A DNA stretch of 64,000 bases, taken from contig CAZGSV010000003.1 of the NCBI GenBank assembly GCA_964528605.1, forward strand, positions 2,094 through 66,093, given 5' to 3'. Below the pieces are notes generated by a model. That model was not told where the DNA came from and did no database searches. It saw only the letters and a program-made list of their open reading frames with translations. Shown one piece after another: positions 1,251 to 63,989 of this stretch; position 1 is the first letter of the stretch, and each line of letters starts with the position of its first letter. The position numbers and the translations under genes are program-made. This DNA is from an uncultured Armatimonadia bacterium (GTDB taxonomy: Bacteria; Armatimonadota; Zipacnadia; CAZGSV01).

Positions 1251-2657
1251 ATGGAACGGCGTGCGCTAGTCACCAAGTTCGGCGGCGCCTCGGTTACTCC
1301 CGAGCATCGGCACTATGTGGCGCAGCGCGTGGCGCAACTGGTGGGCGAAGGCAATCCTGTCGTCGTGGTCGTTTCGGCGATGCACGCAGGCCAGGAGTAC
1401 GAGCCCTACTCTACCGACGCCTTGCTGGAACTGGCCCAGTCCGTGGGGCCCGCGGCGGACTTGCGCGAGCGCGACCTGCTGCTCTCCTGCGGTGAGATCA
1501 TCTCCACCGTGCTGATGGCGCACTATATGCGGGTGCACTATCCCTGGCCCGTCATCGCCCTCAGCGGGGGACAGGCCGGCATCATCACCGACTACAACTA
1601 CGGCAACGCCTCCATTGTGGCCAGCTACCCGGAGTACATTCGGGACATGTTGCAGCAGGGCTACGTGGTGCTGGTGGCCGGCTTCCAAGGCGTGACCGAG
1701 GCGGCGGAGAGCAGGAGCGGAGTGCACGGGGCCATCACCACGCTCGGCCGCGGGGGGGGCGACGCCACTGCTTGCGCGCTGGGCTATGCGCTCGAGGCCC
1801 AGAGGGTGGACATCTACACCGACGTGCCTGGCGTTATGACCGCGGACCCGGGTTTGTTCGAGCCGGGCGCGGCGGAGACGCCCTATCCGCTGGCGCGGGT
1901 CACCTATGAGGACGTGTGCGAGATGGCGCACCTGGGCGCGAAGGTGATGCAGGCGCGCGCGGCGGAGATCGCGCTGGTGCACCGCGTGCCTTTGCGCATC
2001 GCCTCCACCTGGGAGGACTGCCCCGGCACTTACGTAGTCAGCGGCGAGGGCTTCGCCGGGCCGGCGGTGACCGCGGTGGCCAACTCGGCGCGCGTCTTTC
2101 CCGTGGAGTTCGAGGTCGAGCGCGAAGAGGATAAGCGCGAGGTCGAAATCCAGATCATGCGCGCGCTGGGCGAGGCCGGCATCAGCGTCTATCTGGTGCA
2201 CAGCCGCCCCAACGGATGCTCCTTTGTCGTCGAGCAAGAGGCGCTGGAGCCGGTCAAGGACCTGCTTTACGGCCTAGTCATGCCTCTCCAGCGCGAAGGG
2301 CACGGACGCTACTACGTGATGAGCCCTTGGGACGCCAGGCCGCAGCGCTGGCAGCGGCTGGCGCCGGCGCAGTTGCAGGCGCGGGTGCTGCGCGAAGGCG
2401 TGCGGGACGGCGAAGTGCGCGAGGTGCCGCTGCAGTTCGGCGAACCGGCGAGCATCGTCTCCGTCATTGGCCCCGGCCTAAGGGATCGGGTGGGAGTCGC
2501 CGCCGCCGTGATCAGCGCCCTAGAGGAGCGCGGCCTCGAGGTGTGCGAGAGCGCCGAGTCGAGCAACTCGCTCTCTTGCCTGGTCTCCGAGCACGATCTG
2601 CCCGCAGCCGTGCAGGCCCTCCACCGGCGGCTGATAGTCGAGAGGGCGTTGGGGTGA
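1251..2657 (+). CDS. lysC: aspartate kinase with C-terminal ACT domains
   Basis: N-terminal KFGGASV motif, amino-acid kinase fold, and two C-terminal ACT repeats. 468 aa. Confidence 0.9.
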   Translation: MERRALVTKFGGASVTPEHRHYVAQRVAQLVGEGNPVVVVVSAMHAGQEYEPYSTDALLELAQSVGPAADLRERDLLLSCGEIISTVLMAHYMRVHYPWPVIALSGGQAGIITDYNYGNASIVASYPEYIRDMLQQGYVVLVAGFQGVTEAAESRSGVHGAITTLGRGGGDATACALGYALEAQRVDIYTDVPGVMTADPGLFEPGAAETPYPLARVTYEDVCEMAHLGAKVMQARAAEIALVHRVPLRIASTWEDCPGTYVVSGEGFAGPAVTAVANSARVFPVEFEVEREEDKREVEIQIMRALGEAGISVYLVHSRPNGCSFVVEQEALEPVKDLLYGLVMPLQREGHGRYYVMSPWDARPQRWQRLAPAQLQARVLREGVRDGEVREVPLQFGEPASIVSVIGPGLRDRVGVAAAVISALEERGLEVCESAESSNSLSCLVSEHDLPAAVQALHRRLIVERALG

Positions 2658-52994: not shown

Positions 52995-53840
52995 TCAGAA
53001 CCCAAGCAACCGCAATGGAATGCCGATGATGAGCGCGACCACGAGGTCGAACGCTTTCAGGTAGATCGCGTCCCGCCGGGTGTGGTGCAACAGCGGCAGC
53101 AGCCCGTGCCCATCCTGGACCAAGGAATTGGTCAACAGCACGGAGAAAGGCGCCTGGTGCTTCAGGAACATAAGTGTGAACGCCAGGTGCGGCCCCGAAG
53201 TCGGCAGTAGACCGATGATGGCGCCCGCGAAGAGCAAGCCAAGACTACCGCCGGGCGCCAAGGCGCCGACCTTGAGCCGCGTGCCCACCAGGTCGAGAAC
53301 GATTATCATGCCGAAGATCCAGGCCGCCAGCGCCGGCAGGTGGCGCCGGAGGATGTGGTCCCACACGTGCTCCGTAAGGAAGTGGCGCGCGCCGCGGAAG
53401 CACTCTTCCGGGTCCTCGTGAACGGTCACCGCGCACTCCTTGCACAGTTCGAGGTTGAGCCGCTTGGTCAGCCAGTCGGCCGCAAATCCGCCGAGCACCC
53501 CGACGGCGCCGCACACGCCCAAGAGCAGAGGGAGCGTCCTGGGTATCAACCTGACCATCATGAGGCCCTCGTCCCCGACCGACGCCAGCATCACCGCCAC
53601 CAGCGCCCAGAAACTGGCGATGCCCCTGACGTAGAGCCCGACTACCAGCCAGTCCGTAACGCACCCGGGCACCAAGCCTAGCAGAGCGGCCAGCACGTAC
53701 TGCCGCCAGGGCTTGCCGGTGAAAGCGCTGCGGACGCGGCCGCGCCAGCGCAACTCGGCGTACTCGATGACGACCATCAGCACGAACACGATCGCCGTGG
53801 TCTTGGCCGCTTCCTTGAGCGATCCGAGAAAGACTGTCAT
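52995..53840 (-). CDS. polytopic integral membrane protein, function unknown (cytoplasmic Cys/His loop)
   Basis: About eight predicted TM helices. LCKECAVTVHEDPEECF loop. ATG at 53840. Confidence 0.4.
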   Translation of the reverse strand: MTVFLGSLKEAAKTTAIVFVLMVVIEYAELRWRGRVRSAFTGKPWRQYVLAALLGLVPGCVTDWLVVGLYVRGIASFWALVAVMLASVGDEGLMMVRLIPRTLPLLLGVCGAVGVLGGFAADWLTKRLNLELCKECAVTVHEDPEECFRGARHFLTEHVWDHILRRHLPALAAWIFGMIIVLDLVGTRLKVGALAPGGSLGLLFAGAIIGLLPTSGPHLAFTLMFLKHQAPFSVLLTNSLVQDGHGLLPLLHHTRRDAIYLKAFDLVVALIIGIPLRLLGF

Positions 53841-53941
53841 GTCTGGCCTGGTGTTGGACCCAGGCACCCTGGGCCTCGTGCCCCGGGACCTGGTCAGAGC
53901 GCCGGCGCCGAGCCGGGCAAAGCCCCGGCGCCCGAGCCCGC

Positions 53942-54595
53942 CTAGTCAGAATACGAGATGTCCCAGTACTTGCGCCAGACGTTCTCGGACACTACCTGCG
54001 GGCTGGCCGGCGCGGGGTTGCCGGCCTCGTCGGCGTGGTCGGTGTCGCTGTGATACATCTCCGGCCGCATCCACTCGCTGTGCCCGTCAGCGAAGAGCAC
54101 ATTGGACCCGCCGTTGTGCACCCGACACACCGCCCAGTAGCAGAGCGCGCCCCCCTGGAACAGTCCTACCGGCCCGCACGGCGGACCCGCGAGACACCTG
54201 TCCCATTCGACCAGCAGAATCTTGTCGGCCGGTGCGGTGACGGCCGCAGCCCCCCTCCCCGGGAAGCCAGCCACGTAAGGGCTCTGACAGCCGACGTTGT
54301 AGCCGTGACCGTAGAACCACGACAGGTCAGGCCGGCTCGGGCACTTGAAGAAGGTTTCCTTGGTCACGAAGGGCGCTATCCGTTCCTTCCACTTGTAGGC
54401 CAAGGGATACCGCTCCTGCCAGTCGGTGACATACATAGAAAAGGCCATCCCCATCTGGCGCATGTTCGAGAGGCAGGTCGTCTTGCGCGCCGCCTCGCGC
54501 GCCCTGGCTATGACGGGGAAGAGGATGGCAGCCAGAATGGCAATGATAGCGATGACGACCAGCAACTCGATGAGGGTGAAGCCTCGCTTGGCCAA
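53942..54595 (-). CDS. prepilin-type N-terminal cleavage/methylation protein with H-X9-DG (DUF1559-like) C-terminal domain
   Basis: [28 protein letters not shown] class-III signal and LFADGHSEW motif. TTG start 7 nt after a GGGAGGG RBS. Confidence 0.8.
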
Positions 54596-54728
54596 ACTGA
54601 GCCCTCCCGCGGGACGGTGGCACGATTCCCTGAATCGTAACACTGGCGCCCCGGCCGGGCAAGTCCCGGAGCGCGGGACGGGCGTGCCGCTCTCAGGCTG
54701 TTTGCCCTGGCAGGACGAAGATGCCAGA

Positions 54729-56156
54729 ATGCGGCCCCTGGTGACCGCGATGAATAGTGTGACTGAATCGGCGAGACAACTGGCGGTCGTCGCGCAGGCC
54801 GAGGTGCTCGTGGCCGGCGGCGGCGTCTCCGGCCTGGCGGCGGCGATCTGCGCGGGGCGGGCGGGGGCGCAGACGATGCTCCTAGAGCGCACTAGCCTGC
54901 TGGGCGGGACCGCTACCGCCGGCCTGATGGCCAACGTGACGAATCACTGTTTTGAGAAGAGCGGCCGGCAGGTAGTGAAGGGCTTTACGGAGGAGTTCCT
55001 GAACCGCCTCGCCGAGCGCGACGGGGGGCTGCGAGATTGGCGGCATCCCGAGGTTCCCCAGGTGCCTTTCGACCCGGAGGTATTCCAACTGGTCGCGATG
55101 GAGATGCTGCGCGAGGTCAAGGTGCGGGTGTGGCTGGAGACTTGGGCTGTCGGCGTGCTGACGGAGGAGGGGAAAGTCACGGGGATCGTCGTCGAGACCC
55201 GCGGCGGGCGCAAGGCGCTACGCGGCAACGTCACGGTTGATTGCACCGGTGACGCGGACCTAGCCTGCCTCGCTGGCGCAGAGATGCGCGTCGGCCACGG
55301 TGGGCACAGCCTCGAGTTCCGAATGGGAAACGTTGACCTGGAGCGTGCCTACCAATTCGTCCGCGATAACGCGCGCAACTTCATCGAGAAGTCGGACGTG
55401 CCGACCCTGTTTGCCGAGTTTTGCCGCAACTGGGAGGAGCGCGGCCTGTTCCATCTGCCGCACGGCGGCGGCCGCGAGATGCCGCTGTTGCAGGAGGCCA
55501 TCAAGCGAGGCGAGTTCAAGGCCGAGGACGGGCGGGCCTACGGCATGGACTCGCTGGGGATGTACGCGGTGCGCGGCGACAGCACCGTGATCGTCAACGC
55601 CAACTTCTTCCGCTTCGACGTCTTCGACCCGGACGAGTACACCGCGGTGCAGTTCGAGGCGCGCGAGAAGTGCTTCTATGTCGCGGACTTTCTGCGGCGG
55701 CACTTCCCCGGGTTCGAGAACGCCTTCATCGTGGCAACCGCACCCACGCTGGGGCTGCGGCGGACCCGCTGCATAACAGGCGCCTATGTGCTCAACGACG
55801 ATGACCTGCGGCGCGGCGCGCAGTTCGACGATGTCGTGGGCCTGGCGAGCGAGATTCGCCAGGAGGCGAGGCTGGAGCGGGCGGTCGAGATTCCCTATCG
55901 GTGTCTGCTGCCGCAGCGGGTAGAGGGGCTTCTCGTCGCCTCGGGCAAGACCATCTCGACGGACCCGTGCGCCCTCATCCGGGGGCAGGCTCACTGCATG
56001 ACCATCGGGCAGGCGGCGGGCGTGGCCGCCACGCTCTCCTCGCGGCCCGGCGTCGTTCCCTCACAACTGGACGTGAAGGCGCTGCAGCGCGCGCTGCTGG
56101 CGCAGAATGTCTTCCTCGGCGACGCCGACCGACTGAGCGCCCTCGGTCTGTCCTAG
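54729..56156 (+). CDS. FAD-dependent oxidoreductase (FAD_oxidored-type)
   Basis: [21 protein letters not shown] dinucleotide-binding motif. 475 aa. Divergent from the pilin-like gene. Confidence 0.7.
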
Positions 56157-56215
56157 CGAGCGCCCCCCTGGCGCGTAGAGGCGTATTGCCATACGCCCCT
56201 GCGCACGATGCTCCC

Positions 56216-57346
56216 CTACTGCTGCGCGCCGGCTTGCGCCCCGCCGGCCGGCGGTGGGTGCGCCGCCAGGGCCTCCTGCGCGAACCGGACAGCGTTGCGC
56301 CAGACGCGGACTTGCGCCGCCGCGTCCGTATGGTACCCGGTTCCTGACGCCACTTGCCGTATGACCACGACGTCCACCTCGCCGCCGCTCTCAATCTCCA
56401 TGATCTCGCCCTGGTAGCGCCGGAACTTGGCCTCCTTCTTTTCCTGAGCCGTCTGCGTCTTCCAGAAAGCCCGCGAGGCCGCGGGCGGCGGCTCCGCGCG
56501 CTTTTCCGCAAACGCAGCCAGTCCGAACGCGGGTCGCGCCAGCACTACGCAGTACAGGTAGGGATAGGCAGTGCCCTGCACGCTGTTGAGGGACACCTGC
56601 GTCTGCACGCCGATGAACTCCGGGGGGGCGCCCGTGAGCTCGAACAGCAGCCGGCAATCGGTGGGTGTGCGCTTGGGTTCCTTGCCCGACAACTCCAACA
56701 TGGGCACGCACTGGAGCGGCATCTTTGGGTCGCGCTGCAACTCTCTGTAGACGTTGAGCAGCGGCTCCAGTTTGAGCGCGATCTGCGGCGGTTCCCAAAC
56801 CAGCGCCCATCCGGAGAGCCAGAAGGGAATGAGCAGCAGCAGCGAGTCCACCACCCACACCGCCAGCAGGCTGTCCGTAGCCGGGCGCATGCCGAGCAAG
56901 GCCCAGAACTGATCTCCCACGTCCAATGGCGGGGGCCCACCGACCTCGTACAGGCCGACCGTTACGCCGCCCACGAGCACGAGATACCCCAGGAATCCCA
57001 AGCAGCCCCAGCCGCAGCCGAGGCCGAAGCGCGAGGCCCGCCGCTTGGCCTCCTCGGCTTGCCCGTGGAGCGCGGCGAGCCGCTTGAGTTCCTCGACGGT
57101 CACCCGCTCCCACTTGCGCTCGCGCGAGACGGGCGCTTTGGCGCTCCTCACCGACCGTAGGATCAACAGCCCCACGCCGACCACATAGACCAGCGTCCCG
57201 AGCAGGCCCGCCACCAGCAACTGCAATGCCGCCCCCGCGAGCAGCGCCGCCCCGGCAAGCACAAGGCGCGCCCTGCGCGGCAGCCCCGGGGCGAATAGGT
57301 ACTTGGGCTGTGGCGGCTTCTCCGTCGCCTGGGAGCGCTTAGCCAT
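56216..57346 (-). CDS. polytopic membrane protein, last gene of the rSAM operon
   Basis: 376 aa, 4-5 predicted TM helices, GLGCGWGCLGFLGYLV segment. ATG overlaps the rSAM stop (ATGGCTAA). Confidence 0.45.
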   Translation of the reverse strand: MAKRSQATEKPPQPKYLFAPGLPRRARLVLAGAALLAGAALQLLVAGLLGTLVYVVGVGLLILRSVRSAKAPVSRERKWERVTVEELKRLAALHGQAEEAKRRASRFGLGCGWGCLGFLGYLVLVGGVTVGLYEVGGPPPLDVGDQFWALLGMRPATDSLLAVWVVDSLLLLIPFWLSGWALVWEPPQIALKLEPLLNVYRELQRDPKMPLQCVPMLELSGKEPKRTPTDCRLLFELTGAPPEFIGVQTQVSLNSVQGTAYPYLYCVVLARPAFGLAAFAEKRAEPPPAASRAFWKTQTAQEKKEAKFRRYQGEIMEIESGGEVDVVVIRQVASGTGYHTDAAAQVRVWRNAVRFAQEALAAHPPPAGGAQAGAQQ

Positions 57347-58763
57347 TCCGTATCGGCCTCAGTTCACGAGTGCCCATGGCGTCCCAGTAGATGGGGCAGG
57401 CAGCCCCGCACAGGTCGAGCAGATTGCAGTCGCGGCACAAGTCCGGCGCGTAGTCGCGGCGCTGCCACCAGCGCGCCGCCGCTGACGACCATACCTCGGG
57501 AAACGGCTCCCGCAGCAGGTTGCCGACGGGCTCGGTCACACTGGAGCACGGCAGCACACCGCCGTCCGGGGCCACGCTGAGCAAACCGTCACATGCCGCG
57601 CACGCCTTGTTCCCCAGGCCCTCGGCCACCGGGTTGAAAAGGCAGTAGGGCGTGGGAGAGTACCACATGAACTCCAGCCCGAGCCGCCGCGCGCGGTCGC
57701 GCACGCGCAGCACCGCCTCGCCTATCTCCTCGTAGGCCACGTAGTTGGCCTCGGGCTCCAGCGCAGCGCTGCCGCAGGGCATGATCATGTTCATCGAGAG
57801 TCGCTCGCGGCCCAGACGCGCGGCCAAGTCGACCACGCCCTCGACGCAGTCAATGTTGCCACGGCTGATCGTCGTGTGCGTGTGCGCCGTGATCCCGGCC
57901 TCGGCCAGGTTGCGCACCCCCGCGCACGTGGCCTCAAAGGACCCCGGCACGCGGGTAAGCCTCTCGTGGACCTCCGCCGTCGGGCCCTCAACGCTCACCT
58001 GCGCGCTGTTGAGGCCGTGCTCGCGCAGCGCCCGCGCGCACTCGGGCGTGATGAGTGTTCCGTTGGTGATGAGGTTGACGCGCATGCCGAGGCGGCGCGC
58101 ATAGCGTACCAGCCGCGGCAGGTCCGGGCGGACGGCCGGCTCGCCGCCGGTGAAACTAGTCGTGGGCACTTTGGCCTCGTGCCAGATAACGCGGAGCACG
58201 CGCTCGATGTCCCGTGTGCTCATCTCTCGCCCCGCGGGACCGCCGTGACAGCCGGGCCCTCCCGCGCCGACGCAGCCCGCGTAGCAGAACGTGCAGGACA
58301 AGTTGCAGCGGTAGGTGACCGCAATCTCGCTGAGCACCGGCAGCACATTGAACGGCCTGCGGAACGGCACCGTCTCCACCGCGCGCCGCGCCTGCCCTTC
58401 CCGCAGGCACCCGACCAGCAGTGCGCGCACGTCGCAGAAGAAGTCATGGATCTGCTGGCGTCGCTGCGGGGTATCTCCGACGCGCCTGAGGAACCGTTCC
58501 ACCGGCTCGCCGGACAGCGTCGCCTTGAGCAACGCGAGCGCCGTGGGGTTTAGGCGGTGCGCCTTGTTGGGCCGCAAGATTAGCAGGCTGTCCTCTTCGC
58601 GCACGTAGATGAAGGGCGCGATCTCGCGCACGAAACCGTCTATCCAGCGGATGTAAACCTGGTCGCCGTTGCCGGGGGCGGCACGCCTCCCGGCGCGCCC
58701 CTGCGCTCGCCTGCGCAACACAGACACTAGTGAGCCCCCCCGCTGACGCAGGCGCCGTGGCAT
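57339..58763 (-). CDS. radical SAM/SPASM-domain enzyme with N-terminal PqqD-like peptide-recognition (RRE) domain
   Basis: CNLSCTFC (CxxxCxxC) rSAM cluster motif. C-terminal CAACDG...C...CRDCNLLDLCGAAC SPASM cysteines. N-terminal LLILRPNKAHRLNPTALALLKATLSGEPVERFL matches the PqqD/RRE fold signature. A GTG at 58727 forms a TAGTG stop/start overlap and is an alternative start. Confidence 0.85.
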   Translation of the reverse strand: MPRRLRQRGGSLVSVLRRRAQGRAGRRAAPGNGDQVYIRWIDGFVREIAPFIYVREEDSLLILRPNKAHRLNPTALALLKATLSGEPVERFLRRVGDTPQRRQQIHDFFCDVRALLVGCLREGQARRAVETVPFRRPFNVLPVLSEIAVTYRCNLSCTFCYAGCVGAGGPGCHGGPAGREMSTRDIERVLRVIWHEAKVPTTSFTGGEPAVRPDLPRLVRYARRLGMRVNLITNGTLITPECARALREHGLNSAQVSVEGPTAEVHERLTRVPGSFEATCAGVRNLAEAGITAHTHTTISRGNIDCVEGVVDLAARLGRERLSMNMIMPCGSAALEPEANYVAYEEIGEAVLRVRDRARRLGLEFMWYSPTPYCLFNPVAEGLGNKACAACDGLLSVAPDGGVLPCSSVTEPVGNLLREPFPEVWSSAAARWWQRRDYAPDLCRDCNLLDLCGAACPIYWDAMGTRELRPIRNG

Positions 58764-60346
58764 GCGCTATGGCAGGCGGAGTGACAGGCCGAGTGGCACG
58801 CCGAATGGCATGCGTTGTGGCAGGCATCGTGGCAGGCGGTGTGCACGTAGCAGGCGCTGTGGCAGGCGTCCGAGTGTATCAGCGCACTGTAGCTTCTCTC
58901 CGGCGCGATGTTGGTTTTCTGCAGCGAGCGGTCTAGGTCGTGCGTGCGCCGGTAGTAATCGTCGCGGTCGCCGTAATACCAGTAACTGCTGTAGGGCCGG
59001 TAGTAGCGCTGGCCGAACGGCCCCTGGTACCATTCGTCCCCTGGTCCCTGTTGCGCCATCTGCTCGAAGTGCCCCCGGTAGGACTGCTTGGTCGCCTCCA
59101 GATCGCAGTCCCACGCCTTGCGCTGGAGGTTGTCCGACATCCGGACGAACATCTCCTTGACGTCGCTCTCCTCCAGCGTGCCGTCGAGAGTGATCGCATT
59201 GAAGAGCAGTTGGTCGTACTCGGGCACGTCCTGAAGCGTGGAGACGCGGCGTTCCAACTTGAGCGGGTCCACCGACTGGATCGCGATCAACTTCCGCCGC
59301 TCCATCCCGTCCAGCATCAGCGCCAGGATGGAGTTGATGGGATAGTCCAGCAGCAGCGCCGCCTCAAACATGTCGAGTTGCGCGATCTTGCCCGGCTGGC
59401 GGAAGGTGCTCACCTCAATCTTCGGAGGCACCCAGTCGTCCGAGGACCAGCGGATGCGACTCAGGTCCTGCGCCGTCTCCGTGGTGACCTGGTACTTGCG
59501 CTCCGCCAGGAAGAGCCCCAGCAGCACCAACCCTACCAGCGCCGCGCCCGCAATCAGCAGCCTCAGTCGCCGCCGCTGCGTGGGGCTGGTCAAGCGCGGG
59601 AGCGACTGCCCCTGAAACGGCGCCGCGTCAAGGTAGACCTGAATCGGCATCTTCTCCAGGGGTGCGACATTGGCCTTGTGCACGAGCATCGAGAGCCAGT
59701 AGCGGCCTTCCGATTCCTGCCCGTAGTAGTCAATCTTGTAGTTCTGGTTCATGAACTTCTCGGTCAGGATCTTGGCCTTGCTGACCTGCTCCGGGGTTAC
59801 GGCCTTGCCTTCGACCTCGATGGGGAAGTGCAGGTACACCGTCTCGTGGCCCATCGGCTCCTGGAACTGGCACGGCGCCCAGTCGAGATACACCAACTGC
59901 CCGTGCTCCTTGCTCTCGGTGGAGCCGAACATACCCTCCCGCGCCAGGTCCTGTGCGAAGACGACGCTGTAGGTCACGGAACCGCCCGTTGCCGCCGCGC
60001 CCTCCGCGAGTACGATGTCGTACTTCTCCTCTGCGCCGGAGACTTGGTTTATCGAGAGCGCGTGGGTGCGCCCCTGGCTGTCCTGTGCCTGGGAGCGCTC
60101 GAGGTCGAAGTACGGGTTCCCGTTGAACCCCTGCAGATAGAAGCCGTGCAGCGCGCCGCTGACCACCGAGTAGCGCGCCTGGTAGACGAAGGTGGCCTTG
60201 CCGTCTTGCTGGAGGCTGAGGTGCACCTCGACCCAGTCGAGGGTGACCTCCACTGCCGCCGCGGGCATGGCCGCGGCGCAGAGCAGCGCGACGAGCGCAG
60301 CGAGAAGAGGAACCGCGCGCAAGCGGCTCACTTTAGCGAATGCCAC
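58727..60346 (-). CDS. signal-peptide/membrane protein (DUF2207-like architecture) with Tyr-rich segment and C-terminal (Ala-Cys-His-Xaa)10 repeat tail
   Basis: Signal peptide AVPLLAALVALLCAAAMPAAA, a TM segment (LRLLIAGAALVGLVLLGLFLA), and the tail SDACHSACYVHTACHDACHNACHSACHSACHSACHSACHGACVSGGAH. GTG start at 60346. Confidence 0.6.
   Translation of the reverse strand: MAFAKVSRLRAVPLLAALVALLCAAAMPAAAVEVTLDWVEVHLSLQQDGKATFVYQARYSVVSGALHGFYLQGFNGNPYFDLERSQAQDSQGRTHALSINQVSGAEEKYDIVLAEGAAATGGSVTYSVVFAQDLAREGMFGSTESKEHGQLVYLDWAPCQFQEPMGHETVYLHFPIEVEGKAVTPEQVSKAKILTEKFMNQNYKIDYYGQESEGRYWLSMLVHKANVAPLEKMPIQVYLDAAPFQGQSLPRLTSPTQRRRLRLLIAGAALVGLVLLGLFLAERKYQVTTETAQDLSRIRWSSDDWVPPKIEVSTFRQPGKIAQLDMFEAALLLDYPINSILALMLDGMERRKLIAIQSVDPLKLERRVSTLQDVPEYDQLLFNAITLDGTLEESDVKEMFVRMSDNLQRKAWDCDLEATKQSYRGHFEQMAQQGPGDEWYQGPFGQRYYRPYSSYWYYGDRDDYYRRTHDLDRSLQKTNIAPERSYSALIHSDACHSACYVHTACHDACHNACHSACHSACHSACHSACHGACVSGGAH
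58730..58870 (-). repeat. in-frame ~12-nt tandem DNA repeat (GTGGCAGGCNNN on + strand) encoding the ACHX array
   Basis: Eleven near-identical 12-mers read directly from the + strand. The rSAM start codon (ATG at 58763) lies inside the array. Confidence 0.85.
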
Positions 60347-60352
60347 TACCCG

Positions 60353-60742
60353 CTACTGCTGCAGGCTCTCCACGCGCGCGCGCAGCAGGTCCGCCTGGGC
60401 GCAGATGAACTTGGCGAAGTCGCCCTTGGCCTCCGCCCACTCGCGCTCGCTGGGGAAGGTGTCCACGATCCCGCGCCACACTATCTGGTAGGCGCGCTCC
60501 AACGCCGGCTGGGCCTCTCCCGAGCCGCAGAACTCGAAGATGGCCTTGATGTCCACTGGGCGGAACACCGGCGAGGGGCCCGAGGGAACCTCCGTGGTGC
60601 AGCCCAGGAACATCACCCCCATCTCCTCCAGCATGTCCAGATGGAGGCGGACGGCCGCGATCACGGAGGCGACGGAGAAATCGGCCGAGGAGAAGTTCAT
60701 GTGCAGACTGCGCCCTTCGATCTGTGCATAAGGCGTGCTCAT
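60353..60742 (-). CDS. hypothetical cytosolic protein (129 aa), first gene of the rSAM operon
   Basis: ORF ends 6 nt before the start of the repeat-tailed protein gene. No family recognised. Confidence 0.4.
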   Translation of the reverse strand: MSTPYAQIEGRSLHMNFSSADFSVASVIAAVRLHLDMLEEMGVMFLGCTTEVPSGPSPVFRPVDIKAIFEFCGSGEAQPALERAYQIVWRGIVDTFPSEREWAEAKGDFAKFICAQADLLRARVESLQQ

Positions 60743-60870
60743 ACGGTCACCCCGCTGACTGAAGTGGTCTTAAGCGGCGCTGCTGGCGCGTAAGGGTAGC
60801 AGCCCACTGGGGGTGGGTCAAACCGGGCCGGCGCGAGCGCGGCTGGGGCTCGGCGGGCCGGAAGGGCAAG

Positions 60871-62268
60871 TCACTCGGCCAGGTAGCCGAGAGCCCGCAG
60901 GCGCTCCCTCTCGGCCGGGGTCAGCGGTCGCTGCACGCGCGTGACGGTGGGAAGGGGCTTCTCGAGCGGCCGCAGCGCCCAGCGTACATATTGCTCCGTC
61001 AGTTCAGGCCTCTGCGCCGCCAGGTCGCGCGTCTCGCCGGGATCGGCCTCGAGGTTGAAGAGCACGGGCACCCGCGACTCGGACAAGAGCAACTTGGCCT
61101 TGTGCGAGCGGACGAAGTCCAGCGTAGTCGGCGCCGGCTCCGCGCGGCCGTCAAGCAGGTAGGACAGCAGGGGGGTCCTGCTGTTGAACCGCTGTCCGTA
61201 GGCGAAGCCGCGGCCCAGTTTGGCGTTCTCGCGCTCCAGCAGCGGCACCAGACTCCTGCCCTCGTTCGGGGGCGCCGTGACGCCAAGCAACTCCAAGACG
61301 GTGGGAAAGATGTCGGCCAGGTCCACAATGTCGCTGCTGCGCTTCTTTGGCACCCCGGGGCCGCTCATCACCAGCGGCACGTGCAGTTCCTCATCGTACA
61401 CGCGCATCGCGTGCAGCAGGTAGTCGTGGTCGCCCAGCCCCTCACCGTGGTCGCCCGTGACCACGATCAGGGTGCTGTCCGTCAGATTCCGCTGGCGCAG
61501 TTCCCGCCACAGGCGCTGCAATTGCCCGTCCGCGTAATGGATCTCGCAATCGTACAGGTCGCGCAGCCGCTGCAACCCGTCACCGCCGGGAGTGAAGAAC
61601 GTACGCCGGTACGCCGGCGGCGGAGTGTAGGGGCCGTGAGGGTCGTACACATGCACGAAGAGGAAGAACGGCTCCTTGGCAGAATCTCTCAGCCAGGGCA
61701 GCGCCCGATCCAAGACATCCTCGGCCGGCACTTGCACGCCCCTGTCGAACGGGGACATCAGCCGCCAACTAGGCGCCACCTGAACGCCCCTGAAGGCGCC
61801 GCGACGATAGTACGCGTTCATGTTGTCGTCGTAGACTTGAAAGCCCTGGCTAAGCCCGGTGCCGGCCGACAGCACGCTGGAGCCGATGAAGCCGGCAGTG
61901 GAAAAGCCCGCGGCCCGCAGCACTTCCGCGAGCGTGACCAACTCAGGGCTGCCGATGCCGCTATTGGTGAGCACATCGTGCGTGCGTGGATGCAGACCGG
62001 TGAGCATAGTCATGTGCGAAGGCAGCGTCACGCTGGAGCACGCGAACGTCTTGAGGAAGACTGCCCCCTGGCGCGCAAGCGAGGCCACCCCCGGCGCCGT
62101 CTCGCGCCGGTAGCTGTGTAAGGACAAGTGGTCCGCTCGCAGCGTGTCAATGCTCACGAGAACGAGATTGCGGGGCTTCCGCGGCTGCGCCGGCGTCGGG
62201 CGAGAGAGCACGGCGAGTGTTCCGACCAGGCAACCCGGAATCACAACCGCCACCACCAGCCTCCTCAT
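60871..62268 (-). CDS. sulfatase-family (alkaline-phosphatase-superfamily) hydrolase/transferase, secreted
   Basis: LVLVSIDTLRADHL metal-binding motif and ...ACSSVTLPSHMTMLTG. ATG at 62268. Confidence 0.7.
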   Translation of the reverse strand: MRRLVVAVVIPGCLVGTLAVLSRPTPAQPRKPRNLVLVSIDTLRADHLSLHSYRRETAPGVASLARQGAVFLKTFACSSVTLPSHMTMLTGLHPRTHDVLTNSGIGSPELVTLAEVLRAAGFSTAGFIGSSVLSAGTGLSQGFQVYDDNMNAYYRRGAFRGVQVAPSWRLMSPFDRGVQVPAEDVLDRALPWLRDSAKEPFFLFVHVYDPHGPYTPPPAYRRTFFTPGGDGLQRLRDLYDCEIHYADGQLQRLWRELRQRNLTDSTLIVVTGDHGEGLGDHDYLLHAMRVYDEELHVPLVMSGPGVPKKRSSDIVDLADIFPTVLELLGVTAPPNEGRSLVPLLERENAKLGRGFAYGQRFNSRTPLLSYLLDGRAEPAPTTLDFVRSHKAKLLLSESRVPVLFNLEADPGETRDLAAQRPELTEQYVRWALRPLEKPLPTVTRVQRPLTPAERERLRALGYLAE

Positions 62269-63989
62269 CCCTGCATCTCCCTCAAGTGCGCCTCCACACG
62301 TGCGAGACGCTCGGCGGCGAGGCGCTTCCACTGGGGCGCGCAGCCCAGCACCTGAACAGCCGAGAGCGCTTCCCGAGCGCGCGAGAACTGCCCCTCCATT
62401 TCGTACGCGTACGACATGTTGAGTTGCGTCATCGCCCTCAGGTCGGGCCCCGGCTTGTACGTCAGCAACCCCTGGTAGTTCACCAGCCCCTCGCCCGGCT
62501 TCAGGCGCCGGAGGTAGGCGTTGCCTTGCAGCAGCACCCGGTCCGGCGAGGACCAGCCCGGCTCGGCGGGCTGCGCCAGGTCCGACTCCTTGAGATAGGG
62601 CGCCTGCGATTCCGTCAGGGGATCGCTGGCGTCCACCAGCACCATCTGCGCCCCGGTGACGTCAGGTTGCAGCCTGAGGGCGCGCCGGGCCTCCGCGATG
62701 GCCTGCGGAAACTGCCCCTGCCACAGATGCGCGCGCCCCAGAGCGGCGTGCGCTTCCGCCCAGTCGGGCGCGACCTTGACTGCCTGCTGCGCCGCTGCCA
62801 TGGCCCCCTGAGGGCGTCCCTCCCGCGCCAGCGTGGAGGCCAGTTGCACCAGCGGCGCCGCGTATCCCTTGTCCAGTTCCGCGGCCCGGGTCAAAGCGTT
62901 GATGCCCTGCAGAAACAGGCGCTCCTCGTAGCGCCGCAACTCGCCCTCCCAAGCGATCGAGACCTGCCCCATGCCGCACTGCGCCCGCGCATAGTCAGGC
63001 CTGGGTTTGAGCGCCGCCGCAAAGGCTGGCATCGCATCGCGCGCGTTGCCCCGGTCCAGAAGTTCCCAGCCCCGCTGGCAGAGGTATTGCGGATTCGAGG
63101 GGCTGAGTGCCAGCGCCCGGCCCGCCATTCTCACGTCGTCTCCCCAGGCTGCGGCATACCAGAGCCGTAGAACGACGAGTGGTACGAGCGCGACGATTCC
63201 CAGTCGCCACGGCCACGACGCGCGAGTCGGCGCACGCTGCTTGCGCGGTTGCGGCGCCGGCCGCACGACCAGTGTGGCCAGCAGCAGCGCCAAGCCGCCA
63301 ACCAGCATCGAGGTCGCCGCGGGCGCGGTCGTGACCGGAGCCCTGCGGCCCGCTGCCTCGAGCGCGGGCAGCAACGCGCCTGCCAGCAACCATACCGCGG
63401 GCACCAGCGTCTCCCGCTTGCGTACGGCGAGCCAGACCAAGCCGCCGGTGGCCGCAACGAACCACAGAGACAGCCCCACCGAGGTGCCCACGCTCACCGG
63501 CACTGCGCGCTCGAGGAGGAGCGGCACCGGCAGCAGTGTATGAAGGATCTGCAGGCCCGCGCTCGAGAGGACTGCTGCGATCCCGCCGCTTACGGGCGGT
63601 AGTTCTCCGCTAGTGCCGACCTGCGGCATCGGGCCGCGCAGATACGAGGCGGCTACTGCCCACAGCGCCGCCACGGCGAGCGAGGCCACCCCAGACCATA
63701 GCGCGGCCCGTCTCGAGGCCTCGTCTCGAGTGCTGAAGTAGATCGCCAGAGCAACGGGCCCTGCTACGGCTCCCCAGGGCCCGGCAAACGCAGCGCACAC
63801 GCCGAACAGCACGGCCAGCGCTACCCGCGGCCGGGCCGCCCGAAGCGCAAGCACCATCGCCCACACGAGGATGCTCGCGAGAAGCGCGCCTTGGTAGCGC
63901 AGCAGAAGCGCCGGCAGCAACGAGGGATGGAGCGCAACGACCAGGGCCCCGAGCAGCCCGACCGTCCCGCTCCTGGCCCACCGCGTCAA
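62265..63989 (-). CDS. polytopic membrane protein with C-terminal periplasmic TPR repeats (N-terminus may lie beyond the window)
   Basis: About 10 TM helices followed by TPR-like pairs (ALSPSNPQYLCQRGWELLDRGNARDAM...). Open frame continues to the window edge. Confidence 0.5.
   Translation of the reverse strand: MTRWARSGTVGLLGALVVALHPSLLPALLLRYQGALLASILVWAMVLALRAARPRVALAVLFGVCAAFAGPWGAVAGPVALAIYFSTRDEASRRAALWSGVASLAVAALWAVAASYLRGPMPQVGTSGELPPVSGGIAAVLSSAGLQILHTLLPVPLLLERAVPVSVGTSVGLSLWFVAATGGLVWLAVRKRETLVPAVWLLAGALLPALEAAGRRAPVTTAPAATSMLVGGLALLLATLVVRPAPQPRKQRAPTRASWPWRLGIVALVPLVVLRLWYAAAWGDDVRMAGRALALSPSNPQYLCQRGWELLDRGNARDAMPAFAAALKPRPDYARAQCGMGQVSIAWEGELRRYEERLFLQGINALTRAAELDKGYAAPLVQLASTLAREGRPQGAMAAAQQAVKVAPDWAEAHAALGRAHLWQGQFPQAIAEARRALRLQPDVTGAQMVLVDASDPLTESQAPYLKESDLAQPAEPGWSSPDRVLLQGNAYLRRLKPGEGLVNYQGLLTYKPGPDLRAMTQLNMSYAYEMEGQFSRAREALSAVQVLGCAPQWKRLAAERLARVEAHLREMQG

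Follow-up and report, generated by a model that had tools for sequence, protein, structure and literature searches.

Radical S-adenosylmethionine (rSAM) enzymes that combine a SPASM domain with a recognition element (RRE) for ribosomally synthesized peptides that undergo post-translational modification (RiPPs) are familiar chiefly as producers of secreted peptides that are both short and variable. In the QhpD/QhpC and anSME/sulfatase pairs, an rSAM/SPASM enzyme modifies a Cys in a protein that keeps the modification for its function; anSME (the anaerobic sulfatase-maturating enzyme) has no RRE. Among the peptide maturases, PapB has been shown to work iteratively on a repeated CXXXD motif, where it forms six thioethers, the Cys being bound to an auxiliary cluster (PMC12373016). 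The present analysis deals with a gene cassette found at positions 56216–60742 of the window, the 64,000-nucleotide stretch of contig CAZGSV010000003.1 (from an uncultured Armatimonadia bacterium) that was analysed. This cassette encodes an rSAM/SPASM enzyme with a fused RRE-like domain, directly preceded by a 539-residue membrane protein (p539) that ends in a Cys/His repeat. The same machinery is tied here to the near-invariant tail of a large membrane protein, without export or cleavage genes, an arrangement suggestive of a cofactor derived from the protein or of a post-translational modification with a housekeeping role.

The body of p539 is reminiscent of the DUF2207 membrane proteins, which are usually paired with LemA and carry Gly-rich tails. 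As a domain of unknown function, DUF2207 is mostly mentioned in connection with its partner LemA; a mutant study has described stress and biofilm phenotypes (PMC10457818, PMC12631010).

Organization of the cassette

Calling of the open reading frames (ORFs) gives four co-directional genes within this interval, all on the minus strand, as described in the original prediction. They encode a soluble 129-residue protein (p129, 60353–60742), p539 (58727–60346), the rSAM/SPASM enzyme with its fused N-terminal RRE-like domain (57339–58763, 474 residues for the longest ORF) and a 376-residue membrane protein (p376, 56216–57346). The DUF2207-like p539, with its single membrane pass, is the presumed substrate of the enzyme. 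The junctions between the longest ORFs are of +6, −37 and −8 nt, again as predicted. The −37 nt overlap probably arises only from taking the longest ORF, since an in-frame GTG at 58727, the G of which is common to the TAG stop codon of p539 (TAGTG), gives an enzyme of 462 residues with a 1-nt stop/start overlap, as also seen in orthologous loci. The 462-residue product is the one given by other gene callers, and this GTG is probably the true start of the enzyme.

The core of the cassette, as judged from comparative data, consists of three genes rather than the four initially described, namely those of p539, the rSAM enzyme and p376, with p129 as a clade-specific accessory. A conserved four-gene operon was considered and rejected, because only 23 of the 85 loci have p129. 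No tRNA or Rfam match was found in the window, and no promoter-like site within the scanned region 55900–61000.

A conserved Cys/His repeat tail

The C-terminal tail of p539 (residues 494–539; 58730–58867, minus strand) is the presumed modification site. It includes an (ACHS)4 run and contains ten Cys with a period of four residues. This periodicity had been noticed from the start, whereas the perfect (Ala-Cys-His-Xaa)10 array then proposed is not what the tail contains: there are eight exact ACHx units, one irregular ACYVHT and a terminal ACVS, within ACVSGGAH. Across orthologs, the tail columns are at least 90% identical and form the most conserved part of p539. The number of Cys also stays within a narrow range, with 10 among the last 60 residues in 46 orthologs, nine in 15 and eight in 12. 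Conservation of the tail in orthologs of p539 is as the original prediction required. The ortholog units have Ala at position 1 in 96% of the cases and Cys at position 2 in 100%. His occupies position 3 in 88%, the remainder being the Val of the terminal ACVS, and position 4 is Ser (80%), Asp (13%) or Gly (6%).

The codons tell a different story from the residues. Over the last 33 residues, amino-acid identity amounts to 94.7%, versus 44.8% at codon position 3, in 51 orthologs aligned in the same register. Both Ser codon families are used in ortholog tails (225 TCN and 124 AGY). In the window, the 12-nt period of the tail DNA is only 67% identical, with AGC, TCG and TCC for Ser and GCC, GCA and GCG for Ala. 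Given this low period identity, the mixture of TCN and AGY codons and the conservation across phyla, the repeat is neither a chance nor a DNA-level feature. The tail is under strong purifying selection at the protein level.

Linkage between the tail and the enzyme

A scan of GTDB with one genome per species retrieved 519 rSAM relatives, the best 80 of which were fetched. Five more loci, fetched via database proteins, bring the set of rSAM-seeded loci to 85. More than 120 database proteins are 51–79% identical to the enzyme over about 91% of its length, N-terminal domain included. Among these best 80 of 519 relatives, carriers are found in Armatimonadota, Planctomycetota, Kiritimatiellia, Lentisphaerae, Verrucomicrobia, Omnitrophota, Elusimicrobia, Sumerlaeota and Hydrogenedentes, as well as in Acidobacteriota, Gemmatimonadota, Nitrospinota, Nitrospirae, Calditrichia, Aminicenantes, Spirochaetes and a few others. 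The loci come from more than 15 phyla, and every locus inspected belongs to a metagenome-assembled genome (MAG) or to a single-cell genome. Word-indexed homolog searches returned only six matches for p539 and five for p376, presumably owing to an index overwhelmed by the repeat or by weak conservation; orthologs of both were recovered instead from the rSAM-seeded loci and through an exhaustive HMMER search.

The gene neighbourhood proposed at the outset as a check of the system is indeed recovered. At least three ACHx units are detected by regular expression in 83 of the 85 loci and, in all 83, the run closes an ORF that directly precedes the rSAM gene on the same strand. The two exceptions are a locus truncated by the contig end (L069) and one with a shortened tail (L044). 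When all 84 loci with intact upstream sequence are considered, each has a tail gene upstream on the same strand. By tblastn, p539 is found in 84 of the 85 loci, p376 in 80 and p129 in 23. All-against-all clustering of the neighbourhood ORFs gives a similar picture, with p539 in 79 loci, the rSAM enzyme in 78 and p376 in 71, the next family reaching only seven. No recurrent protease, transporter or second maturase emerged among these clustered ORFs, and no exporter or immunity gene is conserved in the 85 loci. Likewise, no conserved cofactor-biosynthesis, cytochrome c maturation, pqq, mft or ahb gene was found near the cassette in this set.

The reverse search was seeded only on degenerate tail DNA, in metagenomes, and 120 loci were read. 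Among these, 92 are tails by regular expression and 28 are unrelated 12-nt tandem repeats. Most of the 92 tails end with ACVSGG(A/S)H or a near variant. Where at least 2.6 kb of downstream sequence is available, 43 of 44 tails have the rSAM gene in the locus, the lone exception (L118) being a spurious short ORF. Co-occurrence in both directions extends over more than 120 independent loci. Each locus read held a single copy of the cassette, in an unrelated genomic context. The cassette is most likely an autonomous module of three genes, vertically widespread, by which a protein is matured at the membrane.

Several variants have been observed during this survey. In one metagenome clade (L119, L120, L131, L160, L169 and L176), the gene order is p539–p376–rSAM rather than p539–rSAM–p376, and the tail reads ...YEH(A/S)ACHS x10...ACVSGGSH. 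A divergent subgroup (L088, L139, L146 and L147), with rSAM enzymes 39–43% identical and deviating tail ends, has a p539 that is detectable only in its C-terminal half; it may represent a sister system. One metagenome locus (L116, about 2527–2571, minus strand) shows a 157-residue CH-repeat ORF without the p539 body and without an rSAM gene within 2.5 kb downstream, which leaves two readings, an orphan tail or a CH-repeat protein of no relation to p539. The tblastn alignments cross an in-frame stop for p539 in L003 and L020, and for p376 in L007, L028, L046, L063 and L072; these may be assembly errors or pseudogenes. The p539 gene called in L003 has a later start and lacks the signal peptide. 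As to the 28 loci retrieved by the pattern only (L086, L094, L098, L102, L103, L128, L138, L140 and 20 others), their tandem repeats read ACHR, ACHP, ACHI, ACHW, ACHQ and the like, without any p539 body, which calls for caution in pattern-only mining.

The radical SAM/SPASM enzyme

The assignment of the enzyme, based at first on its CNLSCTFC motif and its Cys-rich C-terminus, holds well against the Pfam domains. The rSAM core (residues 149–313; 57825–58319, minus strand) matches PF04055 with an E-value of 8.8e-29 and a score of 101 bits for a cut-off of 29.5. Its CNLSCTFC motif corresponds to C153-x3-C157-x2-C160 and is invariant in 31 homologs. The SPASM region (57396–57644, minus strand; residues 388–447 for the Pfam domain) matches PF13186 with 38.1 bits for a cut-off of 21.5 (E 1.9e-9). 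Eight Cys of this region are invariant in the 31-sequence alignment, namely C374, C388, C391, C406, C443, C446, C452 and C456. They are arranged as C391-x9-G401-x4-C406 and C443-x2-C446-x5-C452-x3-C456, in addition to C374 and C388, and this number would suffice for two auxiliary [4Fe-4S] clusters.

A further set of four Cys, invariant or almost so, is family-specific. C110 and C119 lie in the last helix of the RRE-like domain and in the linker (FFCDxRALVxGC), and C164 and C172 directly follow the CX3CX2C motif (FCYAGCxC). An additional metal site or a redox relay could be made up of these four.

No curated cut-off of an NCBIfam equivalog is reached by the enzyme. The peptide maturase models score far below theirs, with 107 bits for PqqE (cut-off 381), 91.6 for MftC (265), 90.2 for StsB (625) and 86.4 for HxsC4 (500), and the sactipeptide, ranthipeptide and anSME models also remain far below their cut-offs. 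The solved relatives retrieved by the family profile are SkfB (1.4e-29), PqqE (1e-26) and anSME (9e-18), together with BlsE, TigE, SuiB and CteB. For the RRE-bearing ones, the alignment of the core begins after about 105–130 residues, which matches the extra N-terminal domain present here. A role in defence was rejected, as the pVip matches given by PADLOC reflect a generic similarity of rSAM cores.

The N-terminal domain

The first hundred residues or so of the enzyme had been predicted to look like PqqD, the RRE in question spanning residues ~36–125 (58389–58658, minus strand). This proposal does not stand at the level of sequence profiles and is upheld at the level of the predicted fold. 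The isolated domain has no match with Pfam PqqD (PF05402) even at E ≤ 10, and its profile against PDB sequences places the RRE of the lasso-peptide protein TfuB1 second, with a non-significant E-value of 0.26. The AlphaFold model of the domain (predicted local distance difference test, pLDDT, 81; predicted template modelling score, pTM, 0.70) contains one helix, three strands and three helices. It displays the expected winged-helix arrangement, in which three helices come after a sheet of three strands, and it precedes the catalytic domain. Foldseek ranks TfuB1 first for this model, with an E-value of 0.21. It was concluded that the domain has an RRE fold that is too divergent for the current hidden Markov models (HMMs).

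Body and topology of p539

All three features first noticed in p539 outside its tail, i.e., a signal-like segment, one strong transmembrane (TM) helix and a Tyr-rich stretch, are present. The signal peptide (residues 1–31; 60254–60346) is an N-terminal hydrophobic segment with an AxA-type site. It precedes an extracytoplasmic DUF2207_N-like domain (about residues 32–260; 59567–60253), delineated from a Pfam match at residues 39–130 and from ortholog scans. The single TM helix LLIAGAALVGLVLLGLFLA (residues 263–281; 59504–59560) has a hydropathy maximum of 2.74. The family-specific cytoplasmic domain that follows is marked by the motifs DWxPPKIxVSSFRKxGKI and KAWDCDLEATK. From the latter motif to the tail, a Tyr-rich linker of about 80 residues is found (residues ~413–493; 58868–59110; all these segments are on the minus strand). 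Across orthologs, this linker contains 11.8% Tyr versus 5.0% for the whole protein and shows little other sequence conservation; it might serve as a flexible spacer, for recognition or as one more site of modification.

The likeness to DUF2207 proteins proposed for the body is only partial. PF09972 (DUF2207_N) is matched by 20 of 38 p539 orthologs at E ≤ 0.1, with a best E-value of 1.1e-8, the window copy scoring 14.7 bits for a cut-off of 24.4. The ectodomain seems from these scans to be a divergent DUF2207 relative. In contrast, the multi-TM region PF20990 (DUF2207_C) is matched by only one of the 38, weakly (E 0.0034), and the window copy has only one strong TM helix. No NCBIfam model matches p539 at E ≤ 0.1, and its profile retrieves nothing from PDB sequences at E ≤ 1. 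In two orthologs (L085 and L187), the Cys/His array continues beyond ACVSGG into Gly/Ser-rich GGW ends, GGGGSSGGGGASGGW and GGGGSSGGGGSSGSW. These ends resemble the Gly-rich tails of canonical DUF2207 proteins. Since both arrays run into such Gly-rich ends, an insertion of the Cys/His array ahead of an ancestral Gly-rich tail is suggested.

The orientation of p539 in the membrane is essential for any interpretation of the tail. With a cleavable signal peptide and a single TM helix, the C-terminal ~259 residues, tail included, are expected with moderate confidence to be cytoplasmic. The distribution of positive charges points in the same direction, as the number of Lys and Arg in the 15 residues after the TM helix is higher than before it in 55 of 71 orthologs and lower in six. 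The window copy is among the six exceptions, so that the topology rests on the family and not on the window sequence. A soluble, Fe-S-dependent rSAM enzyme needs a tail that is cytoplasmic. The tail had initially been described as part of an extracytoplasmic region, which is therefore probably wrong.

The membrane partner p376 and the accessory p129

The third core protein, p376, has no match in Pfam, NCBIfam or PADLOC, and its profile finds nothing in PDB sequences at E ≤ 1. The exhaustive HMMER search gives a discrete family of 461 representatives at 50% clustering, all of about 300–350 residues. Its AlphaFold model, built from a 52-sequence alignment, is of high confidence (pLDDT 90.7, pTM 0.85). 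TM helices occupy the first ~180 residues, and a cytoplasmic alpha/beta domain extends over residues ~185–362 (56252–56794, minus strand). The predicted fold of this domain looks like that of type III secretion chaperones and YbjN-like proteins, a similarity of fold only. In proteins of this kind, the elements of the fold follow the order alpha-beta-beta-beta-alpha-beta-beta-alpha. Type III secretion chaperones are small proteins that bind extended stretches of their partners. Unlike them, p376 is anchored in the membrane by its N-terminal TM helices, with no secretion system nearby, and it shares only 5–13% identity and no Pfam match with class I chaperones of the CesT/SycE/Spa15 type and with YbjN.

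As for p129, tblastn places it directly upstream of p539 in its 23 loci, which belong to an Armatimonadota/Planctomycetota subset, with 53–67% identity. No family was found for it in Pfam, NCBIfam or PADLOC.

A proposed mechanism of tail modification

There is strong reason to consider the tail as the substrate of the rSAM enzyme. On balance, it appears probable that the enzyme modifies the tail of p539 iteratively and in place, most likely through thioether crosslinks, and that the product is retained. In such a scheme, p539 would be a type I membrane protein, the ~260-residue cytoplasmic part of which ends in the Tyr-rich linker and the (ACHS)n-ACVSGGAH tail. The cytoplasmic rSAM enzyme, translationally coupled to p539 through the 1-nt stop/start overlap, would dock on the C-terminal region of p539 by means of its fused PqqD-like RRE. 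It would then move along the repeat, a 5′-deoxyadenosyl radical abstracting a hydrogen in each unit while the Cys thiolate of the unit is held at an auxiliary Fe-S cluster. The likeliest product would be one small thioether ring per unit, of the sactionine or ranthionine type. At the membrane, p376 would hold the extended tail for the enzyme, or would bind it after modification; such a role of p376 in tail handling is proposed tentatively. The modified tail probably stays on p539, since no cleavage or export genes are conserved and its sequence is invariant. The invariant His, with any leftover Cys, would then give a rigid element, metal-binding or redox-active, on the inner side of the membrane. 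Retention and invariance of the tail argue for a structural, metal-binding or redox role rather than for a diffusible peptide.

The nature of the bond is the least secure part of this scheme. Thioether chemistry is put forward tentatively, by analogy with PapB and because the best solved relative, SkfB, is also a thioether maturase. Several observations weigh against the scheme as a whole. The ACHS unit lacks the Asp/Glu acceptor used by PapB. The best and second-best sub-threshold NCBIfam matches, AhbD (136.8 bits for a cut-off of 500) and NirJ2 (131.3 bits for a cut-off of 500), are both tetrapyrrole enzymes. The window copy of p539 breaks the positive-inside pattern, with five Lys/Arg before the TM helix and two after it. 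Finally, the GTDB loci represent the best 80 of 519 rSAM relatives.

A further step can be envisaged, in which the tail is a protein-borne prosthetic structure, i.e., a crosslinked Cys/His array on the (ACHS)8–10 tail that binds a metal or carries redox equivalents in place. This is possible and is put forward with some reserve. The array could take the form of a ladder of thioether rings with a row of imidazoles, or of thiohistidine-like units.

The same module could act on the same substrate through another chemistry on the Cys and His of the tail, such as conversion of Cys to formylglycine or dehydroalanine, a thiohistidine-like Cys-S-His link, a His-Ala C–C cyclophane, epimerisation or methylation. 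Some of these are attractive because what is strictly invariant in the unit is the pair of neighbouring Cys and His (100% Cys and 88% His, the terminal ACVS being counted, beside 96% Ala). An acidic acceptor is lacking in the repeat, the solved relatives include anSME, and HxsC4 and other repeat-directed models score like the thioether enzymes (86 versus 90 bits). However, enzymes of the anSME type have no RRE and act on a C/S-x-P-x-R motif that is absent here, and the best solved relative makes thioethers. At the level of sequence, all these chemistries look alike. Such a different chemistry is considered rather unlikely, though worth keeping in mind.

In an unmodified state, the tail could also serve as an array of Cys/His ligands for a metal, Fe-S clusters or a tetrapyrrole. 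The rSAM enzyme would then act, like AhbD or NirJ, on a small-molecule cofactor that is subsequently loaded, with p376 as an assembly chaperone. The two top sub-threshold matches would fit, as would the seven loci of 85 with a URO-D-like gene nearby, and CHSACH can be read as C-x3-C-H. Cys residues at positions i and i+4 line a helix with thiolates, as in copper storage proteins. On the other hand, the fused RRE fold speaks for a substrate that is a peptide, the scores for AhbD and NirJ, roughly one quarter of the cut-offs, differ little from those for the peptide maturases, and neither cofactor-biosynthesis nor cytochrome c maturation genes are conserved in the neighbourhood. Covalent heme c attachment is a periplasmic process, whereas the tail is predicted to be cytoplasmic; periplasmic heme c attachment at C-x3-C-H was set aside as unlikely in view of this topology and of the missing maturation genes. 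The ligand-array interpretation as a whole looks unlikely.

Less plausible again is a classical RiPP pathway, with p539 as an unusually long precursor from which cleavage of the modified tail would set free a peptide that is bioactive or scavenges metal. The association of an RRE, an rSAM/SPASM enzyme and an adjacent Cys-rich core does resemble sactipeptide, ranthipeptide and ACGX-type clusters. Yet the 85 loci share no conserved gene for a protease, an exporter or immunity, the would-be core is nearly invariant over more than 15 phyla, which is the opposite of the usual variability of RiPP cores, and the conserved body of p539 is membrane-anchored with a DUF2207-like ectodomain. A single cassette copy per locus, in unrelated contexts, also speaks against this very unlikely option. 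A low-complexity or tandem-DNA repeat at a gene end, with a chance rSAM neighbour, can be dismissed: although the DNA pattern also picks up 28 spurious repeats in the 120 metagenome loci, such an artefact is excluded by codon-level diversification under strict amino-acid conservation, by the linkage seen both ways in more than 120 independent loci and by the conserved ACVSGG(A/S)H terminus.

Neighbouring genes

The genes that flank the cassette in the window do not recur with it. Upstream lies a sulfatase-family protein (60871–62331, minus strand; PF00884, E 3.4e-51), a homolog of which is found in four of the 85 loci. At the position of the active-site motif, it carries T-L-P-S-H instead of C/S-x-P-x-R and is therefore not a formylglycine-dependent sulfatase. 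The possibility that the rSAM enzyme is an anSME was rejected, as this neighbour lacks the Cys/Ser motif and has a homolog in only these four loci. Downstream are found an ArsP_2-type putative heavy-metal exporter (52995–53867, minus strand; homolog in none of the 85 loci), a prepilin-type N-methylation/DUF1559 protein (53942–54934, minus strand; two loci) and a FAD_oxidored family protein encoded on the plus strand (54426–56156; none of the loci). The DUF1559 prepilin-like neighbour and a high G+C content suggest Planctomycetota or Armatimonadota as the origin of the window, in line with the closest rSAM homologs. Seven of the 85 loci have a gene of the URO-D family (uroporphyrinogen decarboxylase-like) a few kb or less from the cassette (L002, 12664–13770; L003, 1–149; L041, 7324–8388; and four more), which is too few for a linkage call.

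Significance and comparison with known systems

If confirmed, such a protein-borne Cys/His array would represent an unrecognised class of post-translational cofactor, spread over hundreds of species in more than 15 bacterial phyla. It would have been missed so far because every inspected locus comes from a MAG or a single-cell genome. It would also provide a first functional handle on the widespread and uncharacterised DUF2207 superfamily. The cassette offers a clean, testable substrate–enzyme pair with which new radical chemistry could be studied on a repeated Cys-His dipeptide, and a possible substrate-presenting role for a membrane partner with a chaperone fold. The p539, rSAM and p376 families could become HMMs for annotation.

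No prior description of the cassette was found in Pfam (2025), NCBIfam 20.0, PADLOC, open-access papers or bioRxiv, in agreement with the initial impression that the combination had not been described. From the scores obtained, the cassette lies outside every curated family tested. This, together with the linkage in both directions and the conservation of the tail, bears out the proposal of a new repeat-directed rSAM system. The equivalog families PqqE, MftC, AhbD and NirJ are not reached, and their pathway genes are not conserved nearby. HxsC4 stays at 86.4 bits for a cut-off of 500, and the cassette has no second rSAM enzyme as an Hxs system would. For anSME, the neighbouring sulfatase-family protein has the T-L-P-S-H motif and the enzyme carries the RRE fold. 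QhpD models are not among the best 25 NCBIfam matches of the enzyme, and the cassette differs from both the QhpD and the anSME systems in its substrates and motifs.

The ACGX system (TIGR04340) also pairs a period-four Ala-Cys-x-x repeat with an rSAM/SPASM enzyme. The array described here had been proposed to be distinct from it, and this is confirmed by the 79.9 bits of the enzyme against rSAM_ACGX, far from the cut-off of 400, and by p539 having no NCBIfam match. An invariant His replaces the Gly of ACGX at the third position, and the repeat is fused to a DUF2207-like membrane protein. Compared with DUF2207 proteins (PF09972/PF20990), the likeness lies in the DUF2207_N ectodomain (20 of 38 orthologs), whereas a single TM helix replaces the multi-TM region of DUF2207_C, no LemA partner was seen, and p539 has its own cytoplasmic domain and Cys/His tail.

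The nearest counterparts remain the thioether maturases. PapB (acting on PapA, for freyrasin), SkfB, CteB and AlbA likewise combine an N-terminal RRE with an rSAM/SPASM (or twitch) enzyme and act on Cys-containing peptide segments. The presumed substrate of the cassette is the tail of a membrane protein of about 540 residues and not a short leader–core peptide. Its A-C-H-S unit has no acidic acceptor, in contrast to the CXXXD motif of PapB. The tail is nearly invariant over phyla, with no protease or exporter, and the module is completed by p376, a conserved membrane protein whose fold resembles that of chaperones. With respect to the peptide maturases, what appears to be new is thus the repeat unit, the class of substrate, the invariance of the tail and the chaperone-fold partner.

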